Source: Dehalococcoidia bacterium
Lineage (GTDB): Bacteria; Chloroflexota; Dehalococcoidia; SM23-28-2; RBG-16-64-32
Assembly (NCBI GenBank): GCA_034408935.1
Contig: DAOUMV010000013.1
Coordinates: 50,759-114,758 of the forward strand
DNA length: 64,000 nt
Direction: 5' to 3'
Part shown: one piece after another, positions 44,445 through 56,354 of the stretch
Layout of the letters: each line of letters starts with the position of its first letter
Position numbering within the stretch: the stretch's first letter is position 1
The notes under the pieces: generated by a model
What the model was told of the DNA's origin: nothing
Databases searched by the model: none
The model's input: only the letters and a program-made list of their open reading frames with translations
Translations under genes and position numbers: made by a program

Positions 44445-45881
44445 TCACTCATCCCGCACTACCTCCTCCGCGGGCTTGACGCGGCCCGCGTACCAGGCCG
44501 GGACTATGCTCGCCAGAACCGCCAGTCCAACGGCGATAGCGAAGGCGTAGAGGAACACTTCCGGCGAGACGACGACGTCGACGTCCCCCAGGAAGCTACC
44601 GGCTCCCTGGAGTTGCGCCGCCGCTTGCTGCCCAGCGCCAGGGCCCGCTGGCGCCGCAGAATCCGAGACCAGCGCATTGGCAACGGTCTGCGCGAGAGGG
44701 AACGTGGCGAGGGCGCCGAGCAGCGCTGCTGCCACGCTCACCACCGCCGTTTCGATGGCGAACTGGGCGGTGACGTGCCAGTTGGAGGCGCCGCTAGCCT
44801 TAAGGATGCCGATCTCCTTGACGCGTCGTCGGGCCACCAGCCCGACCGAGACCAGGATCACGACAGCGCACGCCACGAGGCCAGCGATCATGCCGATCTG
44901 GCTGCTGTCTTCGGCATCGGCGATGGGGGCACTGATGCTCTCGAACCGGCTGGCTTCGTTTGTGACGTCTACAGTGTCCTCTCCCAGCGTGTTGCGGATA
45001 GTGTCGGCGACCGCCTCGGCATGATCGACGGTATCAACCTTCACGCTAGCGGCGCTGATCTCGCCTTCGCTGTCGAACAGGCTCTGCAGCGCCTTGAGGG
45101 GAATGAAGATGCTGTTGTCGCCGAACTGCGTGTCGGAGGAGTAGATACCGATGACCTTGATGCTCTCGCCCTGCAGTTCGAAGGTATCGCCCAACAGCAG
45201 ATCGTTCGTCTCCGCGAGGTCGGCGCCCAAGACGGCGACGTTCGCGTCGGTTTCGTCCTCCGCGAAAGTGCGTCCGGAGGTGATTTCTGCATCCTGGACG
45301 CCGGTCACCGAAAGAGAGTTGGGGTCATCTATGCCGGTGACCATAACTGAGGCGCGGAGCCCGCCAGGGGAGGCGCCGCTCGGAGCACCCTCGGGAGGCA
45401 TGGGGAGATTTCCGTCCTCAGGCATGTTTTCACCGGTAAACGGGTTTTCGCCCTCAGGCAGGTTTTCGCCGTTGAACGGAAGGTCGCCCTCAGGCGGGTT
45501 CCCCGCCGGGGGAGTGCCGCCCGCGAAGCGGTCTTCCAGATCGTCCGGGTTGATGGCCGACTCGAGTTCTTCGCCGGTGTATTGCATCGATAGTGTTGCC
45601 TGCACGCTTTCGACGTGCTCGAGCGAGGCGAGGTTCTCGATCTCTTCTTCGGAGAGAAGGTCGCCGTCGCCGCCGGCGAAGCCGCGGGAGCTGCCTGCGG
45701 GGCTGATGGCAATGTTCGTGCCCACCCCGGCTCTGATCTCGTCCAGCCGCTCTCCGAACGCTTGGTTCACAGTGATCATGATCAGGGTCAACCCCATGCT
45801 GACCGCGAGCACGGCAACGAGCAGGCCCGTGCGCAGCGGATTGCGGACGATCGTCCGGAGCGCCCGTCTGATAGTCCTCAT
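44445..45881 (-). CDS. ABC transporter permease (FtsX/MacB-type) with repeat-rich periplasmic insert
   Basis: N-terminal TM + large periplasmic domain + 3 C-terminal TM (FtsX fold); G-E-N-x-P-E-G tandem peptide repeats. Confidence 0.8.
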   Translation of the reverse strand: MRTIRRALRTIVRNPLRTGLLVAVLAVSMGLTLIMITVNQAFGERLDEIRAGVGTNIAISPAGSSRGFAGGDGDLLSEEEIENLASLEHVESVQATLSMQYTGEELESAINPDDLEDRFAGGTPPAGNPPEGDLPFNGENLPEGENPFTGENMPEDGNLPMPPEGAPSGASPGGLRASVMVTGIDDPNSLSVTGVQDAEITSGRTFAEDETDANVAVLGADLAETNDLLLGDTFELQGESIKVIGIYSSDTQFGDNSIFIPLKALQSLFDSEGEISAASVKVDTVDHAEAVADTIRNTLGEDTVDVTNEASRFESISAPIADAEDSSQIGMIAGLVACAVVILVSVGLVARRRVKEIGILKASGASNWHVTAQFAIETAVVSVAAALLGALATFPLAQTVANALVSDSAAPAGPGAGQQAAAQLQGAGSFLGDVDVVVSPEVFLYAFAIAVGLAVLASIVPAWYAGRVKPAEEVVRDE

Positions 45882-45909
45882 ACACTACCCCCTGTGAATC
45901 CTCATCGGG

Positions 45910-47157
45910 TCATTCCGCCCGCAGAGCCTCGATGGGGTCGAGGCGGGATGCTCGGAACGCGGGATAGATGCCAAAGAAGAGCCCGATCATGGCCGAGACG
46001 CCGACCGCGGCGGCGATGCTCCAGAGAGTAACCGTCGTCGTTACGGATGATCCGGTGCCGAAGTCCTGGCCGTCGGCGGCCTTCGCGATGAGCACGCCCG
46101 TGAGCACGCCGATCGCTCCACTGACGAGGGTAACGATGATCGCCTCGATGATGAACTGGAGAAGGATGTCGCCCCTGCTGGCGCCGACTGCTTTCCGGAT
46201 GCCTATCTCGCGCGTTCGTTCCGTCACCGATACCAGCATGATGTTCATGATCCCTATTCCGCCGACCACCAGCGAGATGCCGGCGATGGCACCGAGCAGG
46301 ATCGTCAGCGTACGGCTCACTTCTTTGGCTGTGGAGAGGAGATCGTCCTGGGTCTGGACCGTGAAGTCCTCGACGTAGTCGTGACGCTCAAGCAGAAGCT
46401 GTAGGACGTCGTCCTTCGTCTCGTCAACTTGATTGCCCTCAGTTACCTTGACGACGATCTGCTGAACGTTGGACTCGCCGCTTGGGTTGCGTCCGAACGG
46501 CACCCTGGTCTGGAAGGTGGTGAGCGGTATGATGATCTGGGTGTCCTCGTCGCCGCTTCCCCCCGCGCCCCTCGCCTCCATCACGCCTATCACGGTGAGA
46601 TTCAAAGAGAACGGTCCGAAGCTTTCACGTACCTCCTGGCCTATCGCATTCTCCGGTGTGTCGAAGAGCTCTTCGGCGACCGTCGCGCCGAGGACGACGT
46701 TGGTGGTCTTTCGACGCGCGTCCTCATCGTTGATGAACCTGCCGGTCGCGACCTGCCAGCTTCTCACGTACTCGAAGTCCGGCTCGGTGGCGGTTATCGC
46801 CCCTGAGGTACTGAGCCCGTTGCCGGTGATATCGTTCTCCAGATCAAGGTCGTACTGGGAGACCACCGCCTCTACAGACGAGATATCTTTGATCGCGTCG
46901 GCGTCGTCGGTGGTGAGCGTGACCGCACCGACGCCGGTCCGGTCGGCCTGCTCAGTCTCCCCCGCCTCGACAAAGACCAGGTTGCTGCCGAGTCCCCGGA
47001 CCTCCTTGGTCACGCCCTTTTGAGCACCCTGGCCGACGGCTATGAGGGCGATCACCGCTCCCACACCGATAACGATGCCCAGCATGGTGAGGCCGGTACG
47101 GAGCTTGTTCGAGGTGAGCTCCATGAGGGCCGTCCGGATCGTGTCTATGATGATCAT
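45910..47157 (-). CDS. ABC transporter permease (FtsX/MacB-type)
   Basis: Same architecture as neighbour. Confidence 0.82.
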   Translation of the reverse strand: MIIIDTIRTALMELTSNKLRTGLTMLGIVIGVGAVIALIAVGQGAQKGVTKEVRGLGSNLVFVEAGETEQADRTGVGAVTLTTDDADAIKDISSVEAVVSQYDLDLENDITGNGLSTSGAITATEPDFEYVRSWQVATGRFINDEDARRKTTNVVLGATVAEELFDTPENAIGQEVRESFGPFSLNLTVIGVMEARGAGGSGDEDTQIIIPLTTFQTRVPFGRNPSGESNVQQIVVKVTEGNQVDETKDDVLQLLLERHDYVEDFTVQTQDDLLSTAKEVSRTLTILLGAIAGISLVVGGIGIMNIMLVSVTERTREIGIRKAVGASRGDILLQFIIEAIIVTLVSGAIGVLTGVLIAKAADGQDFGTGSSVTTTVTLWSIAAAVGVSAMIGLFFGIYPAFRASRLDPIEALRAE

Positions 47158-47882
47158 TCCGGCTCCCCCTTATGGCCGTCGGGAGGCAGTGCCGCCAGGA
47201 CACGATTGCCCTCCGGCGGCGCGTCCGAGACGATGCGACCGTCGCGGAGTTGGATGACACGGCGCGTATAGGCCGCAAGGTCCATCTCGTGAGTAACGAG
47301 GGCGATTGTGATGCCGCGTTCGCTGTTGAGACGCTCGAACATCTTCATCAAGTCCAGCGAGGTCTTGGTATCGAGGGCGCCCGTCGGCTCATCGGCGAGG
47401 ATCAACGCGGGATTCGCCACCAGCGCGCGAGCGATGGCGACGCGTTGCTGCTCGCCGCCCGATAGCTGCGTCGGCCGGTGGTGGGCGCGCTCTCGCAGGC
47501 CGACCTCCGCCAGGGCACGCATCGCCCGTCTGTGGCGGTGGTTCGCGCCCCGGTAGATGAGTGGCAGCTCGACTTGGGCGATCGCGGGCAGGCGCGAGAG
47601 GAGATTGAATGACTGGAAGACGAAGCCGATGCGCCGACCGCGGATCCTGGCGAGCTGGGCCTCGCTCATGCGGCGCACGTCGCGCCCCTCCAGTTCGTAG
47701 ATGCCGCGCGTGGGCCTGTCGAGACAGCCGAGGATATGCATAAGGGTCGACTTACCAGACCCGGAGGGCCCCACGATGGCCAGGAACTCGCCGCGTTCGA
47801 TGTCGAGGTCGATGCCCCGCAGCGCGGGCACGGGCACGTCGCCGGCGCGATAGATCTTGGTGATGCCGCGCAGGCGTATCAC
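47154..47882 (-). CDS. ABC transporter ATP-binding protein (MacB/LolD type)
   Basis: Walker [10 protein letters not shown], signature [15 protein letters not shown], Walker [12 protein letters not shown]. Confidence 0.9.
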
Positions 47883-49999
47883 GGCATTCCTCCCGGGGCA
47901 GCGCCGCCGGGGAAGCCCTGTCCTTGTCCGGGGGAGAACCCGTCGGGGAAGCCGGGCTCGCCGCCTTCCTGCTCCGTAGTAGACGACGTCGACGTTGATG
48001 AGCGGCTGGGGAGCAGAATCGTCTGACCCTCCTCAAGCCCCCTTACGATCTCCGTGTTCGTTCCATCGCTGAGCCCTGCCTCAACCTCGACGCTCTGGGT
48101 CGATCCGTCCTCCATCAGGACATCGACGTAGCTTCCGCCTCTCATGGTCTGGACGGCCGACGTGGAAACCATGAGGACGTCCTGAGCCTGATCCACAGTG
48201 ATGGTCACAGAGGTGTTCATGCCGGGCAGAAGCTCCGCGACCGATTCGGAGAAATCAGGCATCACGCCGGCGCCGCCAGCCGGAGTCGCCTCCGCATCTG
48301 GAATATCAGCCGACGTCGGTGCTCCGCCAGCGCCAGCCAGTGCACCCGCTAGGTTCCCTCCCAGCGCCTCTAACTCGTCGGCGCTCATGATGGTCGCGTG
48401 TACGGCGTACGTCACCACTCCCTGAGTGGTGGTCGGATTCGTTTCGACGGAGTCGACCACGACGGGCAACCGCGTGTCCTCAAGAGCGTCGAATGTGGCG
48501 ATACCCGTCTGGCCGGACTCAATGTCAGGCACATCGGATTCGGTGACGGTGAGATCGAGACTCACCGCATCGGGAGTGTTGAGGACAATCGCTGCCTCTG
48601 TGCTTGTCTCTCCGGTTCCACCGGCCGATTCCCCTACCTCGATATTGAGCGCCGCCACGGTGCCGTCAAACGGCGCTACGAGCTTCGCTTCCTCCAGGTC
48701 CTCTTCCGCCTTCTCCAAAGAGAGCTCAGCAAGGCGTACCTGGTTTTGCTGGAGCTCGATCTCCTCTATGTCGGCGCCGTCCAACAGGTCGTTGAGCTGT
48801 GCCTGCGCCGTGACGAGTGCCGCAGCGGCTGTGTCAACGTTACCCTGCGCCTCCGCCAGTTCGTCCTCTGTCGGTTTCTCGCTGAGTTCCGCTAGCTGCT
48901 CGATCGCAAGGTCGAGCGCCTCCTGCGCCGACACAACGGCGGCGTCCACCGAGGCTATCTCTTCATCGCTGGGACCGGCCTGTGCGTCCTCGAGATCGTC
49001 CTTGGCCTCTTGCAGATCCTCTTCCGCTGTCTCAACCGCATCGTCGGCGCTGTCCTTCGACGCCACGGCGTTCTCATAGGACGTGTTGGCGGTCAAAACC
49101 TCTGAGGCCTGCTTTGCGACTTCCTTCGAGCCGGTGACCGTGGCCTCCATCAGAACAGCCTCATCTGCAGAGGAGATCGGCGCCGCTCGCTTCGTGCAGA
49201 ACGAGGGAGCACCATCAACGGCGCAATAGCCCGTTTCCACGCTCTTCAACGACGACTCGGCCGACTGAAGGCTACGTGCGGCGTCCTCGGCCTCGCCCTC
49301 GCTGTCCTCCAGCGCGTCCTCCGCCATCCTCACGGCTTCTTCGGCGGCGTCGATCGCTTCCCCGCTTGCCTCGTAGAGGTTTTCGCGAGACTCTTCCGCC
49401 TGGGCCACCTGTCCTTCCGCTGATGTTACCGATTGCTCCGCTGAGAGGGTCTCAACTTCGGTGGGCCCGTCCAGCGTTTCGTCGAGCGCACGCTGCGCCT
49501 GATCCAAGCTGACCTGCGCTTGCGCCACGCTCTGCTCGGCCGAGGCTATTTCGGCCTCGTCGGGGTCCTTCAAGAGCTGGCTCAGATTGACCTGGGCTGA
49601 AGCAAGGTTCACCTCCGCTTCTGTCGTGGCTCGCTTCAGCTCGTCTGACTCAAGCTTGGCAAGCACGTCTCCCTTCTTGACTTCCTGCCCGATGCTGACC
49701 TTCACAGCCGATACGGTCCCGGACTGGCTGAACGATATCTCCGCCGTTGACTGTGAGACGACGACGCCGCTCGTGCTGACCGTCGTAGTGATGGAGCCCC
49801 GCTCCACCGTCGCCGTCTGGGTTTCCTCCGCTGTGGAGCTGCCGCCAGCCAGCGCCAGCGACCAGAGCGCGTAGGCGCCCGCGGCGATCAGGGCTGCGAG
49901 CACCGCGAGGCCAATCAAGCGGCCACGCCAGCGGTGCCCGCCGCCATCCAGCAGATCGTCGTATTCGTCTATCTCATCGAGGACGGGCGAGTCACTCAT
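47879..49999 (-). CDS. Periplasmic adaptor (MacA/HlyD family) with unusually long coiled coil (706 aa)
   Basis: N-terminal TM anchor, beta-barrel/lipoyl segments flanking a very long Glu/Ala-rich coiled coil; Gly/Pro-rich C-terminal tail. Confidence 0.75.
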   Translation of the reverse strand: MSDSPVLDEIDEYDDLLDGGGHRWRGRLIGLAVLAALIAAGAYALWSLALAGGSSTAEETQTATVERGSITTTVSTSGVVVSQSTAEISFSQSGTVSAVKVSIGQEVKKGDVLAKLESDELKRATTEAEVNLASAQVNLSQLLKDPDEAEIASAEQSVAQAQVSLDQAQRALDETLDGPTEVETLSAEQSVTSAEGQVAQAEESRENLYEASGEAIDAAEEAVRMAEDALEDSEGEAEDAARSLQSAESSLKSVETGYCAVDGAPSFCTKRAAPISSADEAVLMEATVTGSKEVAKQASEVLTANTSYENAVASKDSADDAVETAEEDLQEAKDDLEDAQAGPSDEEIASVDAAVVSAQEALDLAIEQLAELSEKPTEDELAEAQGNVDTAAAALVTAQAQLNDLLDGADIEEIELQQNQVRLAELSLEKAEEDLEEAKLVAPFDGTVAALNIEVGESAGGTGETSTEAAIVLNTPDAVSLDLTVTESDVPDIESGQTGIATFDALEDTRLPVVVDSVETNPTTTQGVVTYAVHATIMSADELEALGGNLAGALAGAGGAPTSADIPDAEATPAGGAGVMPDFSESVAELLPGMNTSVTITVDQAQDVLMVSTSAVQTMRGGSYVDVLMEDGSTQSVEVEAGLSDGTNTEIVRGLEEGQTILLPSRSSTSTSSTTEQEGGEPGFPDGFSPGQGQGFPGGAAPGGMP

Positions 50000-50026: not shown

Positions 50027-50095
50027 AGCTGATATTTCCAGCGTACTCTGCTGTCGTTAAGGAGGAGTTGGAGAAGGATTAGAGTTCCCTAATCC
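50027..50095 (-). promoter_or_regulatory. Conserved cis-element copy 1 (upstream of adaptor/ABC efflux operon)
   Basis: TTAGGGAACTCTAAT inverted repeat + CCAAC + TTAACGACAG block, 30-95 nt upstream of start codon. Confidence 0.55.
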
Positions 50096-50146: not shown

Positions 50147-50365
50147 TCAAGGCGTCGCGCCCGCAAACGAGGTCTGCCGTGGCCTCGCCGGCGAAGGCGC
50201 TATCCTTGCCGCTGCAGGCTCAGTCGCCGCCTCCACGGGAACGATGCGCGCGCATTGGAGGCAGCGCCACTCCGGCTCGTCGCTGAGGTCGAGGTAGGCG
50301 TCGCCACCGCATCTGAGGCAGCAGCGAAGACGAAACGCCCGGTTCGATCCAGTTACCATCCCCAC
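50147..50365 (-). CDS. Small zinc-ribbon protein (72 aa)
   Basis: CxxC-x15-CxxC; GGAGGA RBS; directly downstream of htrA. Confidence 0.4.
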   Translation of the reverse strand: MGMVTGSNRAFRLRCCLRCGGDAYLDLSDEPEWRCLQCARIVPVEAATEPAAARIAPSPARPRQTSFAGATP

Positions 50366-50386: not shown

Positions 50387-51505
50387 TCATCCCCTGTAGT
50401 CGCTTGGGAACGCGGCCAGAGTAGCCGACAGCTCCAGGGTGTCCTCTCCACGAACCACGGTCAGCGTCACGTCGTCTCCCGCCTTTTTGCCGTTCAGGAA
50501 GCTGATCAGGTCCTCGATGCTTTCAACCGGCTCTCCGTCGACGGCGGTGATGACGTCCCCACCTGCGTCGGGTTCCCCCTGAAACGTAGTGCCACCGCCC
50601 CGGAGCCCGGCGTCATCGGCCGGACTTCCGGAGACGACATCCAACACGTATGCTCCCCGGTCGACCGTGAGGTCTAGGGCTTCCGCCATCTCGCCGGTGA
50701 GGGTCGTGCCGCCGATCCCCAGCCAAGGGCGTTCAACCGTGCTCCCTTCCGTCAGGCGGGACAGGACTCCCTTGGCGGTATCGATTGGGACAGCGAAGCC
50801 CACTCCGTCCGCTGACTGACTTTCGATGGCGGTGTTGACGCCGATGACCTCCCCGTCAGAGTCGAGTAAGGGCCCGCCGGAGTTGCCGGGGTTGAGAGCG
50901 GCATCGGTCTGGATGACGCCGGTGATGGGGCGGCCGTCGTCACCGGTCAGGCTCCGGTCGAGGCCGCTGACGACGCCGACGGTTATCGTGCCCTCAAGCT
51001 CGTAGGGGCTGCCGAGGGCGATGGCCATCTGGCCCGGCTGCAGGTCGGTGGAGTCCCCCAAAGTGAGGGGCGTGATGTCCGAGACCTCAGAAGCGTCAAC
51101 CTCCACCAGGGCGAGGTCGTCCGCGGAATCGACCCCGAGCACCTCACCATCGAGCTCTGTGTCGTCGCTGAGGGTCACGGTCACGCTGGATGCGTCGTCC
51201 ACTACGTGACTGTTGGTGAGGATGTGCCCCGCGTCATCGATGAGAAACCCTGATCCGGTGCCTACGCCCACGCTAATCTGGACCACGGCTGGGATCGCCT
51301 CATCGTAGATGTCAACTACCTGCTGCTCTTCGACCAACGCTGGCCCCGTTGCCACGGGCTCCGCCTGGACCGACTCCTCTGCAGCAGTGTCCGCGGCAGA
51401 GGTGCCCGACTCAGAGCCGGAGTCAAGGCTCAGGGCCACGAGCGAGATGGCAAGCGCAGCGATGGCCATAAGGGCCGTCACTCCCAACGCGAGCTTCGTC
51501 TTCAT
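50387..51505 (-). CDS. htrA: HtrA/DegP-family serine protease with PDZ domain
   Basis: Catalytic triad context (TNSHVV, DLALV, GNSGGPL), C-terminal PDZ; signal/TM N-terminus. Confidence 0.9.
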
Positions 51506-51537: not shown

Positions 51538-51600
51538 TCTGAATCCAAGGTAAGTCCCTGACGTTAAAACGGTATTGGCGGAAGATTAGATTTCTCTAGT
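51538..51600 (-). promoter_or_regulatory. Conserved cis-element copy 2 (upstream of htrA)
   Basis: CTAGAGAAATCTAAT + CCAAT + TTTAACGTCAG + TGGATTCAGA. Confidence 0.55.
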
Positions 51601-51703
51601 GTGACGCGATCTGTTTGGCGCAGCTCGATGGGGTGCACAAGCGAAAAGGGGGGAGGCCAGGCAAGCACCTGGCCTCCGTCCATGCGCGTTTGCGAGGCAG
51701 CCT

Positions 51704-52381
51704 CTAGGCCGTCACATCGGACGTTTCGGTGGTCTCGGACTCCTCATCGTGATCGGAGAAGGGGGCGAACCACATTCCGCCGAAACCGCGCGGACCGCCC
51801 CGCATGCTGCCGAAAGCGTGGAAACACCCCTCGGCGTTGACGATTCCGTCGATCATGCCTTCGGTGTGCTGGTAGAAGTCGTCGGCCTGGTCCTGGGTGA
51901 GATCGCCGTCGGAAACCATCTCATCGAGCTGCGCCTTGATCTTGTCAAGGAGCGCCGCCTTGAAGTCGTCCACGCTCATCCCCTGAGCCTCGGCCAGCTC
52001 GGCAAGGGAGTTGCCGTCCGCGAGTTGCTCCATCAGGTCGGCGCGGGTCATGCCCAGCACGTCGGCGGCGTTCTTCATCACGTCGAAGTGGGCGCGCCAT
52101 ATTCCACCGTGGAGCCCGCGGAAGAAGAAGTTGCCTTCCCGCAGCCGCTCTCCCTGCTCCTCCGTAAGGCGCCCCTCGTCCACCGCCTCGTCGATGGTCT
52201 CGTCTCTTGCCTCGTCGATGGCGGTCTTGAGCTCGTCCTCGCTGACACCCAGCTTCTCGGCGACCTTGGCGAGGAACGACCCAACGAGCCCATCGTCCTC
52301 ATCGGCCGCCGCCCCGCTGATGGCCACGACGCCCAGGGCCAGGACGGCGACCGCCACCGCTATCATCAGCAGCCTCTTCAC
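51704..52381 (-). CDS. LTXXQ-motif (CpxP/Spy-like) secreted protein, paralog 1
   Basis: Signal peptide; LTEEQ and LTQDQ motifs; GTG start with GAGGAGG RBS (aligned to paralog 2 MKRLMIIAV). Confidence 0.7.
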   Translation of the reverse strand: MKRLLMIAVAVAVLALGVVAISGAAADEDDGLVGSFLAKVAEKLGVSEDELKTAIDEARDETIDEAVDEGRLTEEQGERLREGNFFFRGLHGGIWRAHFDVMKNAADVLGMTRADLMEQLADGNSLAELAEAQGMSVDDFKAALLDKIKAQLDEMVSDGDLTQDQADDFYQHTEGMIDGIVNAEGCFHAFGSMRGGPRGFGGMWFAPFSDHDEESETTETSDVTA

Positions 52382-52431
52382 CTCTGCACCTCCTCGCATT
52401 GCCTCTTCATGGCGTTAGTTCTCCCAAGGCA

Positions 52432-52494
52432 TCTGAATCCAAGATAGGTGGCTGTCGTTAAACGGGCATTGGAAAGAGATTAGAATTCTCTAAT
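52432..52494 (-). promoter_or_regulatory. Conserved cis-element copy 3 (upstream of LTXXQ paralog 1)
   Basis: TTAGAGAATTCTAAT + CCAAT + TTTAACGACAG + TGGATTCAGA. Confidence 0.55.
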
Positions 52495-52573
52495 GTGGGC
52501 GGTGACTTGCCCGAACGGGCGGAGGTCGGGTTCATACCCGACCCCCGCCCTGTCCGGTTCGCGGCCGCTGCGC

Positions 52574-53239
52574 CTAGGCCGTCACATCGGACGTCTCCGT
52601 GGTTTCGGACTGGTCATCGGGAGGGGAACCGAACTGCGGCCCGCCGAAACCACCTGGGCCGGGCCTCATGCCGCCGAAACCGGGGCCACAGCCCGTGCCG
52701 GCCACGATGTCGTCGATGTTGTCCTGGGTGCGCTGGAGCATCTCGTCGGCCTGGTCCTGAGTAAGGTCGCCTGCGGCAACCGATTCATCGAGCTGGGTCT
52801 TGACCTGATCCAGGAGCGCGGCCTTGAAGTCGTCTTCGCTCATGCCCTGAGCCTCGGCCACGTCGGCCAGCGAGTTGCCGTCCTGCAGTTGTTCCATGAG
52901 GTCGTCCTTGGTCATGCCCAGCACCTCAGCGGCAGCGGTCCTGATGTGCACGCGCTCATGCCCCATTCGCCCACCGCCGAAGGGGAAGTCACTCTCCTGC
53001 AGCCGGTCAGCCTGTTCCTCGGTGAGGCTACCATCAGCCACGGCCTCATCCAGCGTCTCGCTCCGGGCCTCGTCGATGGCGGTCTGAAGTTCATCCTCGC
53101 TCACGCCCAGCTTCTCGGCGACCCTGGCGAGGAACGACCCGACGAGCCCGTCGTCTTCCTGGGCGGCCGCCCCGCCAATGGCCACGACGCCCAGGGCCAG
53201 GACGGCCGCCGCCACTGCTATTATCATCAGTCTCTTCAT
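52574..53239 (-). CDS. LTXXQ-motif (CpxP/Spy-like) secreted protein, paralog 2
   Basis: ~70% identical to paralog 1 including identical C-terminal ...SETTETSDVTA. Confidence 0.75.
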   Translation of the reverse strand: MKRLMIIAVAAAVLALGVVAIGGAAAQEDDGLVGSFLARVAEKLGVSEDELQTAIDEARSETLDEAVADGSLTEEQADRLQESDFPFGGGRMGHERVHIRTAAAEVLGMTKDDLMEQLQDGNSLADVAEAQGMSEDDFKAALLDQVKTQLDESVAAGDLTQDQADEMLQRTQDNIDDIVAGTGCGPGFGGMRPGPGGFGGPQFGSPPDDQSETTETSDVTA

Positions 53240-53342
53240 CTGTCACCTCCTTGTCGTGTTGTGATCTTGTCAGCGATTCCGGCGTGGTCGGCTACGTCAT
53301 TCTCTTCATCTGCACACCTCCTTGTGTGACCTCCTGTGTGAC

Positions 53343-53407
53343 TGCTGAATCCAGCGTAGAGCGCTGTTGTTAGGGAGGCGTTGAAGCAGGACTAAAATTT
53401 TCTAATG
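53343..53407 (-). promoter_or_regulatory. Conserved cis-element copy 4 (upstream of LTXXQ paralog 2, divergent from two-component operon)
   Basis: TTAGAAAATTTTAGT + TCAAC + CTAACAACAG + TGGATTCAGC. Confidence 0.5.
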
Positions 53408-53478
53408 CAGCTAGCCTTGTTCTCTAATGATCTCTTAATCTTGGCGCCCTACAATGTGTCGTAAGGAGGAGCTTTCGG

Positions 53479-54150
53479 GTGTATGTCCTAATAGTGGAAG
53501 ACGAGCGGCGGCTGGCCCAGGTGGTAAGCAAGGTCCTGGAGGAGGAGGGCCACACGGTCGACGTCTCCTACGACGGGGAGGAGGGGCTGGCGATGGGAAT
53601 GGAGGGCTCCCACGACGTCATCGTTCTGGACATCCTGCTGCCCGTCATGGACGGACTGGAGGTGTGCCGCGCCCTCCGCGCCAACCGGGTCGATACCCCC
53701 GTGCTCCTCCTGACAGCCCTGGACGCGGTCGAGGACCGCGTGCGCGGGCTGGACGCCGGCGCCGACGATTACCTGCCTAAGCCGTTCGCCTTCCAAGAAC
53801 TGCTGGCCCGCCTGCGCGCATTGGGTCGCCGGCGCGTGCAGGTCCGTGAGCCCGATCGACTTCGCGCGGCAGATCTCATGCTGGACCTGCGACGGCGCCG
53901 CGCAGAGCGCAACGGCAAGACCATCGAGCTCAGCCCTAAGGAGTTCGCCCTGCTGGAGTTCCTCATGCGCAACGAGGGCCGCGTCGTCACACGCACCCAG
54001 ATCCTGGATCACGTGTGGGGGTACGAGTACTCGCCGGACTCCAACCTGGTGGACGTGTACGTGACATACCTGCGGCGCAAGGTGGATCGAGGCCACGACC
54101 GCAGCCTCATCCGCACCGTGCGCGGCACCGGCTACGCTCTGGAGGAGTAA
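53479..54150 (+). CDS. OmpR-family response regulator
   Basis: Receiver (VEDE...DILLP, T, K) + winged helix (LSPKEFALLEFLMRNEGRV...VRGTGYAL); GTG start with AAGGAGG RBS. Confidence 0.9.
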   Translation: MYVLIVEDERRLAQVVSKVLEEEGHTVDVSYDGEEGLAMGMEGSHDVIVLDILLPVMDGLEVCRALRANRVDTPVLLLTALDAVEDRVRGLDAGADDYLPKPFAFQELLARLRALGRRRVQVREPDRLRAADLMLDLRRRRAERNGKTIELSPKEFALLEFLMRNEGRVVTRTQILDHVWGYEYSPDSNLVDVYVTYLRRKVDRGHDRSLIRTVRGTGYALEE

Positions 54151-54151
54151 C

Positions 54152-55426
54152 ATGTTCGGCGCGGCACGCTGGCGTCTCACGCTCTGGTTCGCCCTGGCGT
54201 TCGGGGCCATCCTGCTGGTCATCGGCGCGGCGGTGTACCTCACCACCCGCGCCGTCCTCTTCGACCAGGTGAATGACGACCTCGAGTCGCGGGCGGGGCG
54301 GGAGGAGCGCGTGCTCACGCCGCGGCTGCCGGGGCGCGGTCCCGGCGGTCCTGTGCGCGACATCGTCATCGGGCCGACGTTCACGACTGCGGGCTACTTC
54401 TACGCCCTGGTCGACTCCACAGGCGAACTCCTGGCCGGGACCGCCAACGTCGACCCTGCCGGCCTGGTCAGTGAGGACGCCCTCCAAAAAGCGCTCGCCG
54501 ACGGCGTCGCCTTCGCGGACACCAAGTCGTCTGAGGGGGACTCGCTGCGGGTCTACGTGGTGAGCCTGGGGACATCAGAAGATGATGAACTGCTGATGGA
54601 GGTGGGGCGGAGCACGGAGCCGGAGGAGCAGGCGCTTCAACGGCTGCTGCTGGTGCTGATCGGCGGCGGCGGCGCCGGCCTGGGCCTGGCCCTCGTCGGC
54701 GGCTACGCCCTCGCCGGTCGAGCCCTGCGCCCCATCCGATCGGCGATGGACTCCCAGCGGGCCTTCATCGCCGACGCCTCCCACGAGCTGCGGACACCGC
54801 TATCGGTGATCCGCGCCAACGCGGAGCTGATGAAGCGTCACTCCAGGGAGCCCGTCCGCACCAACGGAGAGGCGGTGGACGACATCATCGGCGAGTCGGA
54901 CAGGCTGGCGAGGCTGGTGGGCCAGATGATGACGCTGGCCCGGATCGACGCCGGCCAGGCATCGTTGTCCCTGTCCGAGGTGGCGCTGGACGAACTGGCG
55001 GAGGAGGTTGCGCGCGGCATGCGCCTGCTGGCCGAACGTCGCGGCGTCGCGTTCGAGGCCGCTGTGGACGGCCCCCTGCCCGTACGGGGGGATAAGGACC
55101 GCCTGCGGGAGCTGATCGTGATCCTGAGCGATAACGCCATCAAGTACACGGACGCGGGCGGCCGGGTGCGACTGGAGGTGCGCCGCGCCTCCGGCGGGAA
55201 GACCACGGTGCGGGTCACGGATACGGGGCACGGGATACCCCCGGAGGCGCTGCCCCACATCTTCGACCGGTTCTACCGCGTGGACAAGGCGCGGTCGCGG
55301 CAGGCGGGTGGCACGGGGCTGGGGCTGGCGATCGCGAAGTGGATCTCGGAGGCGCACGGGGGCTCCATCCGGGCGGAGAGCGCCCCCGGTGTGGGGAGCT
55401 CGTTCACGGTAGAGCTGCCGGCGTAG
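54152..55426 (+). CDS. Sensor histidine kinase
   Basis: Two TM helices, HAMP, H-box ASHELRTPL, HATPase N/G boxes. Confidence 0.9.
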   Translation: MFGAARWRLTLWFALAFGAILLVIGAAVYLTTRAVLFDQVNDDLESRAGREERVLTPRLPGRGPGGPVRDIVIGPTFTTAGYFYALVDSTGELLAGTANVDPAGLVSEDALQKALADGVAFADTKSSEGDSLRVYVVSLGTSEDDELLMEVGRSTEPEEQALQRLLLVLIGGGGAGLGLALVGGYALAGRALRPIRSAMDSQRAFIADASHELRTPLSVIRANAELMKRHSREPVRTNGEAVDDIIGESDRLARLVGQMMTLARIDAGQASLSLSEVALDELAEEVARGMRLLAERRGVAFEAAVDGPLPVRGDKDRLRELIVILSDNAIKYTDAGGRVRLEVRRASGGKTTVRVTDTGHGIPPEALPHIFDRFYRVDKARSRQAGGTGLGLAIAKWISEAHGGSIRAESAPGVGSSFTVELPA

Positions 55427-55537: not shown

Positions 55538-55819
55538 ATGCTGTTCGTCGTCACTCACGAGCACACGCCCGAGCTCTGCCCAACGGACGACCCGGCGCCG
55601 GTGCACAAGCTGACCGACAAGAACCACATCAAGGAGTCGGGGGTGAAGGTGGTGGGGAGCTATATAGCGTCCCTCGAGCACGTCCTCTTCTTCGTGCTGG
55701 AGGCGGACGACTACGCCCAGGTGGTGCGGTACTTGCGACCGATCATGAAGATCGGCACGCCGGACATCGTGCCGGCTCAGACGCTGTCCAGGGGCCTCGG
55801 CCCCTTCTACAAGGGATAG
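55538..55819 (+). CDS. Small conserved hypothetical protein (93 aa), paralog A
   Basis: RBS GAGGAGG; MLFVVTHEHTPELCP... ; 75-80% identical to 56073-56354. Confidence 0.6.
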   Translation: MLFVVTHEHTPELCPTDDPAPVHKLTDKNHIKESGVKVVGSYIASLEHVLFFVLEADDYAQVVRYLRPIMKIGTPDIVPAQTLSRGLGPFYKG

Positions 55820-56072: not shown

Positions 56073-56354
56073 ATGCTGTTCGTTGTTACTCATGAGCACA
56101 CGCCGGAGCTCTGTCCGTCGGACGATCCGACGCCGGCACATAAGCTGGCGGACGAGAAGCACATCAAGGAGTCGGGGGTGAAGGTGGTGGGGGCGTGGGT
56201 GGCGCCGCCGGAGCACACCTTCTACCTGGTGCTGGAGGCGGACGAGTACGGCCACGTGGTGAGGTACCTGCGGCCGATGATGAAGATCGGGACGCCGGAC
56301 ATCGTGCCGGTGCAGGAGCTGAGCGACACGCTGAACCACTTCCCGAAGCGGTAG
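56073..56354 (+). CDS. Small conserved hypothetical protein (93 aa), paralog B
   Basis: RBS AAGGAGAG; tandem duplicate of 55538-55819. Confidence 0.6.
   Translation: MLFVVTHEHTPELCPSDDPTPAHKLADEKHIKESGVKVVGAWVAPPEHTFYLVLEADEYGHVVRYLRPMMKIGTPDIVPVQELSDTLNHFPKR

Follow-up and report, generated by a model that had tools for sequence, protein, structure and literature searches.

The question raised by this locus is whether short upstream open reading frames (uORFs) and repeated ribosome-binding modules ahead of two secreted-protein genes form a translational control device on stress genes. The locus lies in a 64,000-nucleotide (nt) stretch of DNA, here called the window, from an uncultured Dehalococcoidia bacterium (Chloroflexota; contig DAOUMV010000013.1, positions 50,759 to 114,758), and contains two tandem paralogs of the DUF2680 type, paralog 1 and paralog 2. 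An earlier sequence-only reading had proposed stress-gene leaders under translational control, and all strings on which it relied were located on the minus strand. Judged by comparison with relatives, the observation is real and partly meaningful, and most of the proposed control fails: the paralog-2 leader is evolving and has kept a Shine-Dalgarno (SD) sequence, an ATG and a stop codon, and the uORFs at paralog 1 and htrA are incidental. The best explanation, considered probable as a whole, is that both paralogs belong to a regulon of four promoters and that the paralog-2 leader carries a duplicated start, the upstream copy of which serves as a ribosome-loading site. The features concerned are as follows.

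51704..52381, minus strand: paralog 1, DUF2680-like protein of 225 amino acids (aa), GTG at 52381 (open reading frame and Pfam).
52574..53239, minus strand: paralog 2, putatively secreted DUF2680-like helical protein of 221 aa, ATG at 53239, divergent to the response-regulator gene (open reading frame and Pfam).
53216..53285, minus strand: duplication unit 2, with a decayed copy of the transcription start region (ACGCCGGAATC), leader, SD2 and ATG2, the functional start (unit alignment).
53286..53357, minus strand: duplication unit 1, with the end of the -10 box, transcription start region, leader, SD1, ATG1 and decayed first codons (unit alignment and single-module relatives).
53292..53309, minus strand: uORF MKRMT* on the ancestral start codon, with SD1 AAGGAGGTG at 53315-53323 (sequence and conservation).

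Upstream of paralog 2 the CAAGGAGGTG..CAGATGAAGAGA block was indeed found twice, the two ATG codons (53309 and 53239) being 70 nt apart. Module 1 reads CAAGGAGGTG-TGCAG-ATGAAGAGA, with its SD at 53315-53323 and its ATG at 53309, and module 2 reads CAAGGAGGTG-ACAG-ATGAAGAGA (SD 53244-53252, ATG 53239). The first module opens the five-codon uORF that had been described, MKRMT* (ATG AAG AGA ATG ACG TAG, 53292..53309). The spacer opens with a decayed copy of ACGCTGGATTC, followed by leader, SD, ATG and GATAGC, the whole unit being duplicated. The stretch from the -10 box to the uORF stop was aligned with the stretch behind it in five genomes. Scores of 46-59 were obtained in four of the five, as against 13 ± 4.5 for shuffled sequences, which puts the repeat well outside chance; the score of 32 in L001 (related loci are designated by such L numbers) fell inside its shuffle range (maximum 37). 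A BLAST search of the spacer against the window and 80 loci matched only the L001 ortholog, and the origin was settled by the alignment of unit 1 with unit 2: the paralog-2 leader is shown by this alignment as the product of a tandem duplication of 70-72 nt, which takes in everything between the last bases of the -10 box and approximately codon 8.

The duplication is found in nine distinct sequences from independent assemblies (the window, L001, L081, L085, L092, L093, L094, L095 and L098), whose leaders are 74-92% identical pairwise. Module 1 is regarded as the ancestral start because the real start of the single-module relatives (L002, L007, L008, L084, L091 and L099) lies at its position. 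A further deletion of 3-4 nt put a TAG in frame after module 1. Since 70 is not a multiple of three, the duplication together with this deletion left the ancestral start opening a uORF of 2-5 codons, and the second copy supplies the working start of paralog 2.

Comparison of leaders in orthologous loci, proposed earlier as a check, gave a divided outcome. The paralog-2 uORF is kept in all nine carriers, where it reads MKRMT, MKRMR, MKRVR, MKRV or MT (2-5 codons). Every column of SD1 (7/7), of ATG1 together with the five bases behind it (8/8) and of the stop (3/3) is identical in the nine, a total of 18/18, whereas only 30/75 (40%) of the other leader columns, taken as the neutral reference, are invariant (Fisher p=1e-6). 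SD1, ATG1 and the stop are thus shown to be conserved in excess of the remaining leader. In the functional SD2, just 5/7 columns are invariant. Calculated anti-SD pairing in the window is -13.9 kcal/mol for SD1 and -14.1 kcal/mol for SD2; in L095 and L098, SD2 is weakened to -11.7 and -10.0 kcal/mol, with SD1 at -14.3 kcal/mol. The SD of the main open reading frame is degraded to AAGGAGGGG in L095 and to AAGGGGTG in L098, the uORF SD being intact in both, a hint that ribosomes loaded upstream might be needed to translate the main frame.

By minimum free energy, the paralog-2 leader showed no significant RNA structure (z=0.30). A consensus fold of four sequences reached -9.2 kcal/mol with no convincing covariation, and the minimum free energy folds of individual genomes disagreed with one another. 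A search of the leader against Rfam returned no family, its sole match being at chance level (E=0.48). The leader holds an SD, a start and an in-frame stop, within a transcript boundary read from the -10 box only; neither alternative RNA structures nor a conserved peptide linking the uORF to the main start were found.

The other two upstream frames fared differently. The one at paralog 1 is the following.

52378..52410, minus strand: window-specific uORF MKRQCEEVQR* upstream of paralog 1, replaced in relatives by an SD-like purine box (sequence).

The string itself is present, ATG 52410 opening MKRQCEEVQR*, and its TGA (52380-52378) does overlap GTG 52381 in the sequence GTGA. As a control element it was lost on comparison, being confined to the window: no ATG occurs at this position in any of six relatives (L001, L081, L082, L091, L092 and L100), all of which have an SD-like purine box instead (AAGGAGAAG, AAGGAGAGC, ATAGAGAGG, GAGAAAAAG or CAGGAGAGG). 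The window sequence ATGAAGAGG is a point-mutated form of this box and not a duplicated start. The GTGA overlap had been taken for a translational-coupling geometry. It comes about by itself wherever AAG follows the start codon, as any upstream frame in that register must end at the TGA of NTG-AAG, and it is therefore not evidence of coupling. Similarly, the arrangement said to recur on htrA turned out to be the ribosome-binding site itself: GTGAAGAGG (51524-), 19 nt ahead of ATG 51505, forms part of that purine-rich site without an SD of its own; L082 has GTGAAAAGG in its place, and in L006 the string is missing. Both resemblances are 8-9-mers within SD-like stretches rich in purines. Relatives keep neither of them as an open reading frame, and both uORFs are incidental, the outcome of chance.

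For paralog 2, SD1, ATG1 and the stop outconserve the remaining leader and, in two lineages, the functional SD. On this ground it is inferred that the upstream copy was retained as a 5′-proximal ribosome-loading site, which could protect the 5′ end of the mRNA or act by standby or re-initiation; it appears not to be a peptide-dependent or structure-dependent attenuator. The transcript would start at GGATTCAG, putting the uORF about 38 nt from the 5′ end. On the hbs mRNA of Bacillus subtilis, ribosomes on a strong 5′ SD are reported to block RNase J1 (PMC5737220). With that stabilizing SD (STAB-SD) the present site has in common a strong SD and start codon some 30-40 nt from the predicted 5′ end and a long way upstream of the main start, and conservation of the upstream site independently of the encoded peptide; the element here differs in its origin, the gene having recently duplicated its own start in tandem.

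Several points weigh against a loading site, and part of them favour its main rival, a neutral scar, in which a slippage product in the CACACA-rich leader is tolerated without function and the upstream SD and ATG are conserved because the clade is young. Other small CACAC-type repeat duplications are found in the leaders of L092 and L094. The close relatives L084, L091 and L099, of similar protein identity, lack the duplication, which is therefore dispensable. No RNA structure was found in the leader (z=0.30; consensus energy about -9 kcal/mol), and the uORF peptide varies between relatives. In addition, the nine sequences are phylogenetically related, and the conservation test assumes the neighbouring leader columns to be unconstrained. 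The -10 box and transcription start were assigned from the consensus, with a sigma-70 scan returning no full promoter; transcription start, ribosome occupancy and regulator binding are predictions from sequence. Compared with hbs, stabilization here is a sequence-based proposal, and an RNase J-type 5′ exonuclease is hypothetical for the host. What speaks against a scar is that all 18 SD1, ATG1 and stop columns are invariant as against 40% of the others (p=1e-6), in leaders whose pairwise identity goes down to 74% and which therefore had time enough for decay, and that in L095 and L098 it is the functional SD2 that decayed and not SD1. A scar is thus held to be possible though rather doubtful.

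The idea from which the analysis started, a regulatory leader peptide or attenuator in which translation or stalling of the micro-uORF tunes stress genes, with paralog 1 coupled through its stop/start overlap and htrA similarly equipped, can draw on the conserved strong SD and ATG ahead of the paralog-2 uORF and on the existing GTGA overlap at paralog 1. It is very unlikely, however, given a peptide that varies (MKRMT, MKRMR, MKRVR, MKRV, MT) and shrinks to two codons, a leader with no alternative or conserved RNA structure, no anti-SD and no Rfam match, and a uORF stop lying 39 nt from SD2, so that the two do not overlap. The paralog-1 uORF occurs in 0/6 relatives, the htrA GTG lacks an SD and is absent in L006, and the TGA-start overlap is automatic for NTG-AAG. 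Gene conversion between the modules could likewise keep module 1 similar to the selected module 2 and so mimic purifying selection. The modules have 22-23 nt in common, and both copies read GAGGAGG in L001 and GGTA in L081; but the SD contexts of the two modules differ in L092, L093, L094, L095 and L098, module 1 is more uniform than module 2, and the tract would be very short, its flanks having diverged to about 60% identity. Conversion is accordingly judged highly improbable, and retention as a loading site is kept as the preferred explanation.

A general double SD in the leaders of the family (53% versus 30% in shuffles) is not claimed, as the figure is inflated by the duplication clade. 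A different leader device was seen in the same gene family in L010-L019, a Dehalococcoidia clade further removed from the window: some 25-50 nt ahead of the start of the DUF2680-like gene, a conserved hairpin (GGAGGAG..N..CTCCTCC) pairs an SD-like arm with an anti-SD-like arm, upstream of the true SD.

The second part of the answer concerns transcription. A block of 56 nt is common to paralog 2, paralog 1, htrA and a MacAB-like exporter operon, and the four blocks could be aligned. Scores given below are from a position weight matrix (PWM).

53351..53406, minus strand: promoter/operator block of paralog 2, repeats ATTAGA/TTTAGT/TTCAAC/CCTAAC, -10 TACGCT at 53353-53358 (PWM 68.0 bits).
52439..52494, minus strand: promoter/operator block of paralog 1, ATTAGAGAATTCTAATC..TCCAATG..TTTAACG, -10 TATCTT at 52441-52446 (PWM 75.8 bits).
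51545..51600, minus strand: promoter/operator block of htrA (PWM 54.8 bits).
50038..50093, minus strand: promoter/operator block of the operon encoding the MacA-like, ABC and FtsX-like proteins (PWM 70.6 bits and sequence).

The consensus of 51 distinct blocks from related loci reads ATTAa.gAA.TcTAaTCtt.cTcCAA.gc..cttTAAcgaC.Gc.gccTA..CT. It consists of three to four T(C/T)(C/T)AA(T/C) boxes in 10-11-bp phase, the first two together making a palindrome; the last box ends about 9-10 nt ahead of a TAnnnT -10, with no recognisable -35. The conserved GGATTCAG sits at the expected transcription start site. A scan with the sigma-70 consensus found no full promoter. The matrix was derived from 46 blocks of other loci, with the window excluded. 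Across the 64 kb it recovered exactly the four blocks listed, scoring 55-76 bits against a 99.99th percentile of -25 for all positions. In relatives the genes behind the block encode DUF2680-like proteins, HtrA, MacA or FtsX. A synteny of histidine kinase and response regulator divergent to one or two DUF2680-like genes, HtrA and MacAB-like genes recurs in Dehalococcoidia loci; in a set of 61 more remote loci, homologs of HtrA and of the kinase were found within 6 kb in 33 and 29 cases, respectively. The shared block, its specificity and the conserved synteny are shown by these comparisons, read at the level of sequence. With phased repeats upstream of the -10 at several promoters (four blocks in the window, 51 in relatives), the block is laid out as are promoters that OmpR/PhoB-type regulators activate.

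In Gaiellaceae loci (L034, L048, L050, L059 and L076) a variant operator was seen, with CTAAG/GTAAG repeats about 11 bp apart, upstream of regulator and htrA genes. As these loci belong to the Actinomycetota, the module spans two phyla.

The candidate regulator is encoded divergently to paralog 2, and the products of the remaining target genes were assigned by profile searches.

53479..55426, plus strand: OmpR/PhoB-type response regulator (53479-54150) and sensor histidine kinase (54152-55426) (profile matches).
53401..53455, plus strand: putative autoregulated regulator promoter, TCTAAT 53401, TCTAAT 53423, TCTCTTAAT 53431, -10 TACAAT 53450-53455 (sequence).
50387..51505, minus strand: HtrA/DegP-family serine protease, Trypsin_2 and PDZ (profile matches).
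44445..49999, minus strand: exporter operon with HlyD/MacA-like adaptor (47879-49999), ABC ATPase (47154-47882) and FtsX/MacB-type permeases (45910-47157 and 44445-45881) (profile matches).

The regulator has a receiver and a winged-helix domain and the kinase has HisKA and HATPase_c, as in OmpR/PhoB-type systems; among syntenic Dehalococcoidia loci the regulator sequences share 79-91% identity. L010 and L019 have the same promoter layout ahead of their regulator genes. The divergent regulator would activate the four promoters and also its own. The protease was identified by Trypsin_2 (7e-34) and PDZ_2 (2e-15). For both regulator and kinase, the best-scoring models were of the CopR/CusR/RppAB type, below their cutoffs. 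Membership of the heavy-metal CopR/CusR systems was rejected, as the regulator and kinase missed the NCBIfam cutoffs of TIGR01387/TIGR01386 (243 versus 279.2 and 184 versus 292.6, respectively). Because these models nevertheless score best, and because the proteins contain His-rich and Met/His/Gly-rich segments, a metal signal may be considered for the kinase on the same footing as protein-folding stress.

The same region also contains, downstream of the htrA stop and ahead of the exporter promoter block, an open reading frame of 72 aa with CxxC...CxxC (zinc-ribbon-like; 50147-50365, minus strand) and no Pfam match. Directly downstream of the histidine kinase a second tandem paralog pair is found (55538-55819 and 56073-56354, plus strand), of 93 aa each and belonging to DUF3303.

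Paralogs 1 and 2 are identical at 148/225 positions (66%), not the approximately 70% given before. Both end in the identical SETTETSDVTA, and each contains two LTxxQ motifs (LTEEQ and LTQDQ), as had been described. For paralog 1, GTG 52381 seems the best start because the same position is GTG (L081, L082, L091 and L100) or ATG (L001 and L092) in six relatives; ATG 52399 (open reading frame lister) and ATG 52366 (database) are less likely. Behind each gene a strong stem-loop was obtained by folding, a scan with terminator consensus sequences having given nothing useful, and the paralogs are therefore regarded as separate transcription units.

52511..52557, minus strand: strong stem-loop 3′ of paralog 2, terminator-like, without U-run (fold of 52500-52575, -49.6 kcal/mol).
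51644..51677, minus strand: stem-loop and CCCCUUUU 3′ of paralog 1, terminator-like (folding).

The label of CpxP/Spy-like LTXXQ proteins could not be upheld. In a Pfam scan neither paralog matched PF07813 (LTXXQ/CpxP-Spy) at E<=0.1. Against the DUF2680 profile (PF10925; gathering cutoff 25), paralog 1 reached 27.7 bits and paralog 2 fell just short with 23.0 bits. Homologs numbered 444, mostly from Dehalococcoidia/Chloroflexota metagenome-assembled genomes, with more distant ones in Gaiellaceae, Thermoleophilia and Acidimicrobiia. A PDB sequence search with the paralog protein gave a best E of 0.038, which is not meaningful. True homology to CpxP/Spy, which would make the paralogs periplasmic chaperones or kinase inhibitors, is suggested by the two LTxxQ motifs per protein, an N-terminus (MKR, a hydrophobic stretch and AAA|Q) that looks like a Sec signal peptide, and an all-helical prediction for both; the paralog gene is also divergent to a regulator-kinase operon, as cpxP is to cpxRA, and shares its promoter block with HtrA. 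Such homology is nonetheless quite unlikely. When 79 family members were scanned, 76 matched DUF2680 at E<=0.01 (best 1.9e-9), and PF07813 was not among the 25 most-matched families; an hhalign comparison of the family profile with an approximate E. coli Spy sequence gave a probability of 0.2% and aligned only a 15-residue motif. The LTxxQ segment also yields weak matches to the SHOCT, tape-measure and SPP1 families; it is a common, generic helix N-cap and not diagnostic of CpxP/Spy. The assignment preferred here is therefore DUF2680.

Members of DUF2680/YckD (PF10925) are, like the paralogs, secreted and helical, with repeated LTxEQ-type motifs. At roughly four times the size of the Pfam domain (57 residues), the window proteins add two modules, a His-rich loop, a disordered Gly/Met/His-rich tail and a conserved C-terminal VTA. 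The loop between the modules (52930-52990 and 52080-52130) has MGHERVH and HGGIWRAH here and HGPGHGPGH in relatives, and the tail bears GGMRHG-type repeats. At the extreme C-terminus, the sequence ...(S/T)(D/E)VTA hardly varies among the 79 members (52574-52700 and 51704-51830), with T220 and A221 at >=90%, and follows a tail of about 40 Gly/Met/His-rich residues that is predicted to be disordered. Such an end suggests a role in recognition, perhaps as a PDZ ligand of the co-regulated HtrA. A literature search for DUF2680 or YckD function, or for a Dehalococcoidia HtrA regulon, returned nothing relevant.

In E. coli, cpxP is divergent to cpxRA, and DegP belongs to the Cpx regulon. Similarly, the window has a small, apparently secreted helical protein with two LTxxQ motifs divergent to an OmpR-type regulator-kinase operon, an HtrA/DegP protease under a shared promoter motif, and a regulator promoter that is apparently autoregulated. 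It differs in the protein family (DUF2680 and not PF07813), in a regulator and kinase that score best on CopR/CusR/RppAB-type and not CpxRA models, in the duplication of the protein gene, in a MacAB-type exporter within the regulon and in the host phylum, Chloroflexota. The divergent operon and the co-regulation with HtrA make a functional analogy to Cpx possible, but not homology. CpxP is an accessory inhibitor of CpxA in the E. coli Cpx response (PMC4160245); for the proteins studied here, interaction and degradation are proposed by analogy only. Among monoderms, CssRS of B. subtilis with HtrA/HtrB and MprAB of Mycobacterium with PepD are two-component systems controlling HtrA-like proteases. 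As in those systems, the two-component system here adjoins, and presumably controls, a membrane-anchored HtrA-family protease, with secretion or envelope stress as the theme; the TCTAAT-type operator is not the one reported for them, and to our knowledge no DUF2680-type partner protein has been described in either.

A wider proposal would unite these elements. The DUF2680-type proteins would be the CpxP-equivalent of a Cpx-like envelope-stress circuit in Chloroflexota and Actinomycetota, evolved independently of CpxP, and would act as secreted accessories reporting to the divergent kinase. HtrA would remove them by way of the nearly invariant C-terminal VTA as PDZ ligand, and the mini-uORF on one paralog would set the dosage of the two copies by ribosome loading at the 5′ end. 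This joint reading is speculative and rather unlikely as a whole.

The kind of system is ordinary; what is new for this lineage is the two-component stress regulon together with a lineage-specific leader duplication. Current ideas are not overturned, the contribution being mainly annotation and hypotheses. The outcome is a concrete, testable regulon for a two-component system of an uncultured Dehalococcoidia bacterium, with an operator consensus, four target promoters and a putatively autoregulated regulator gene. The uncharacterised DUF2680 family is thereby tied, in two phyla, to HtrA and to stress of the envelope or of secretion. The duplicated leader offers a clean natural case in which a short tandem duplication turned a gene's own start into an upstream mini-open reading frame that was later kept.

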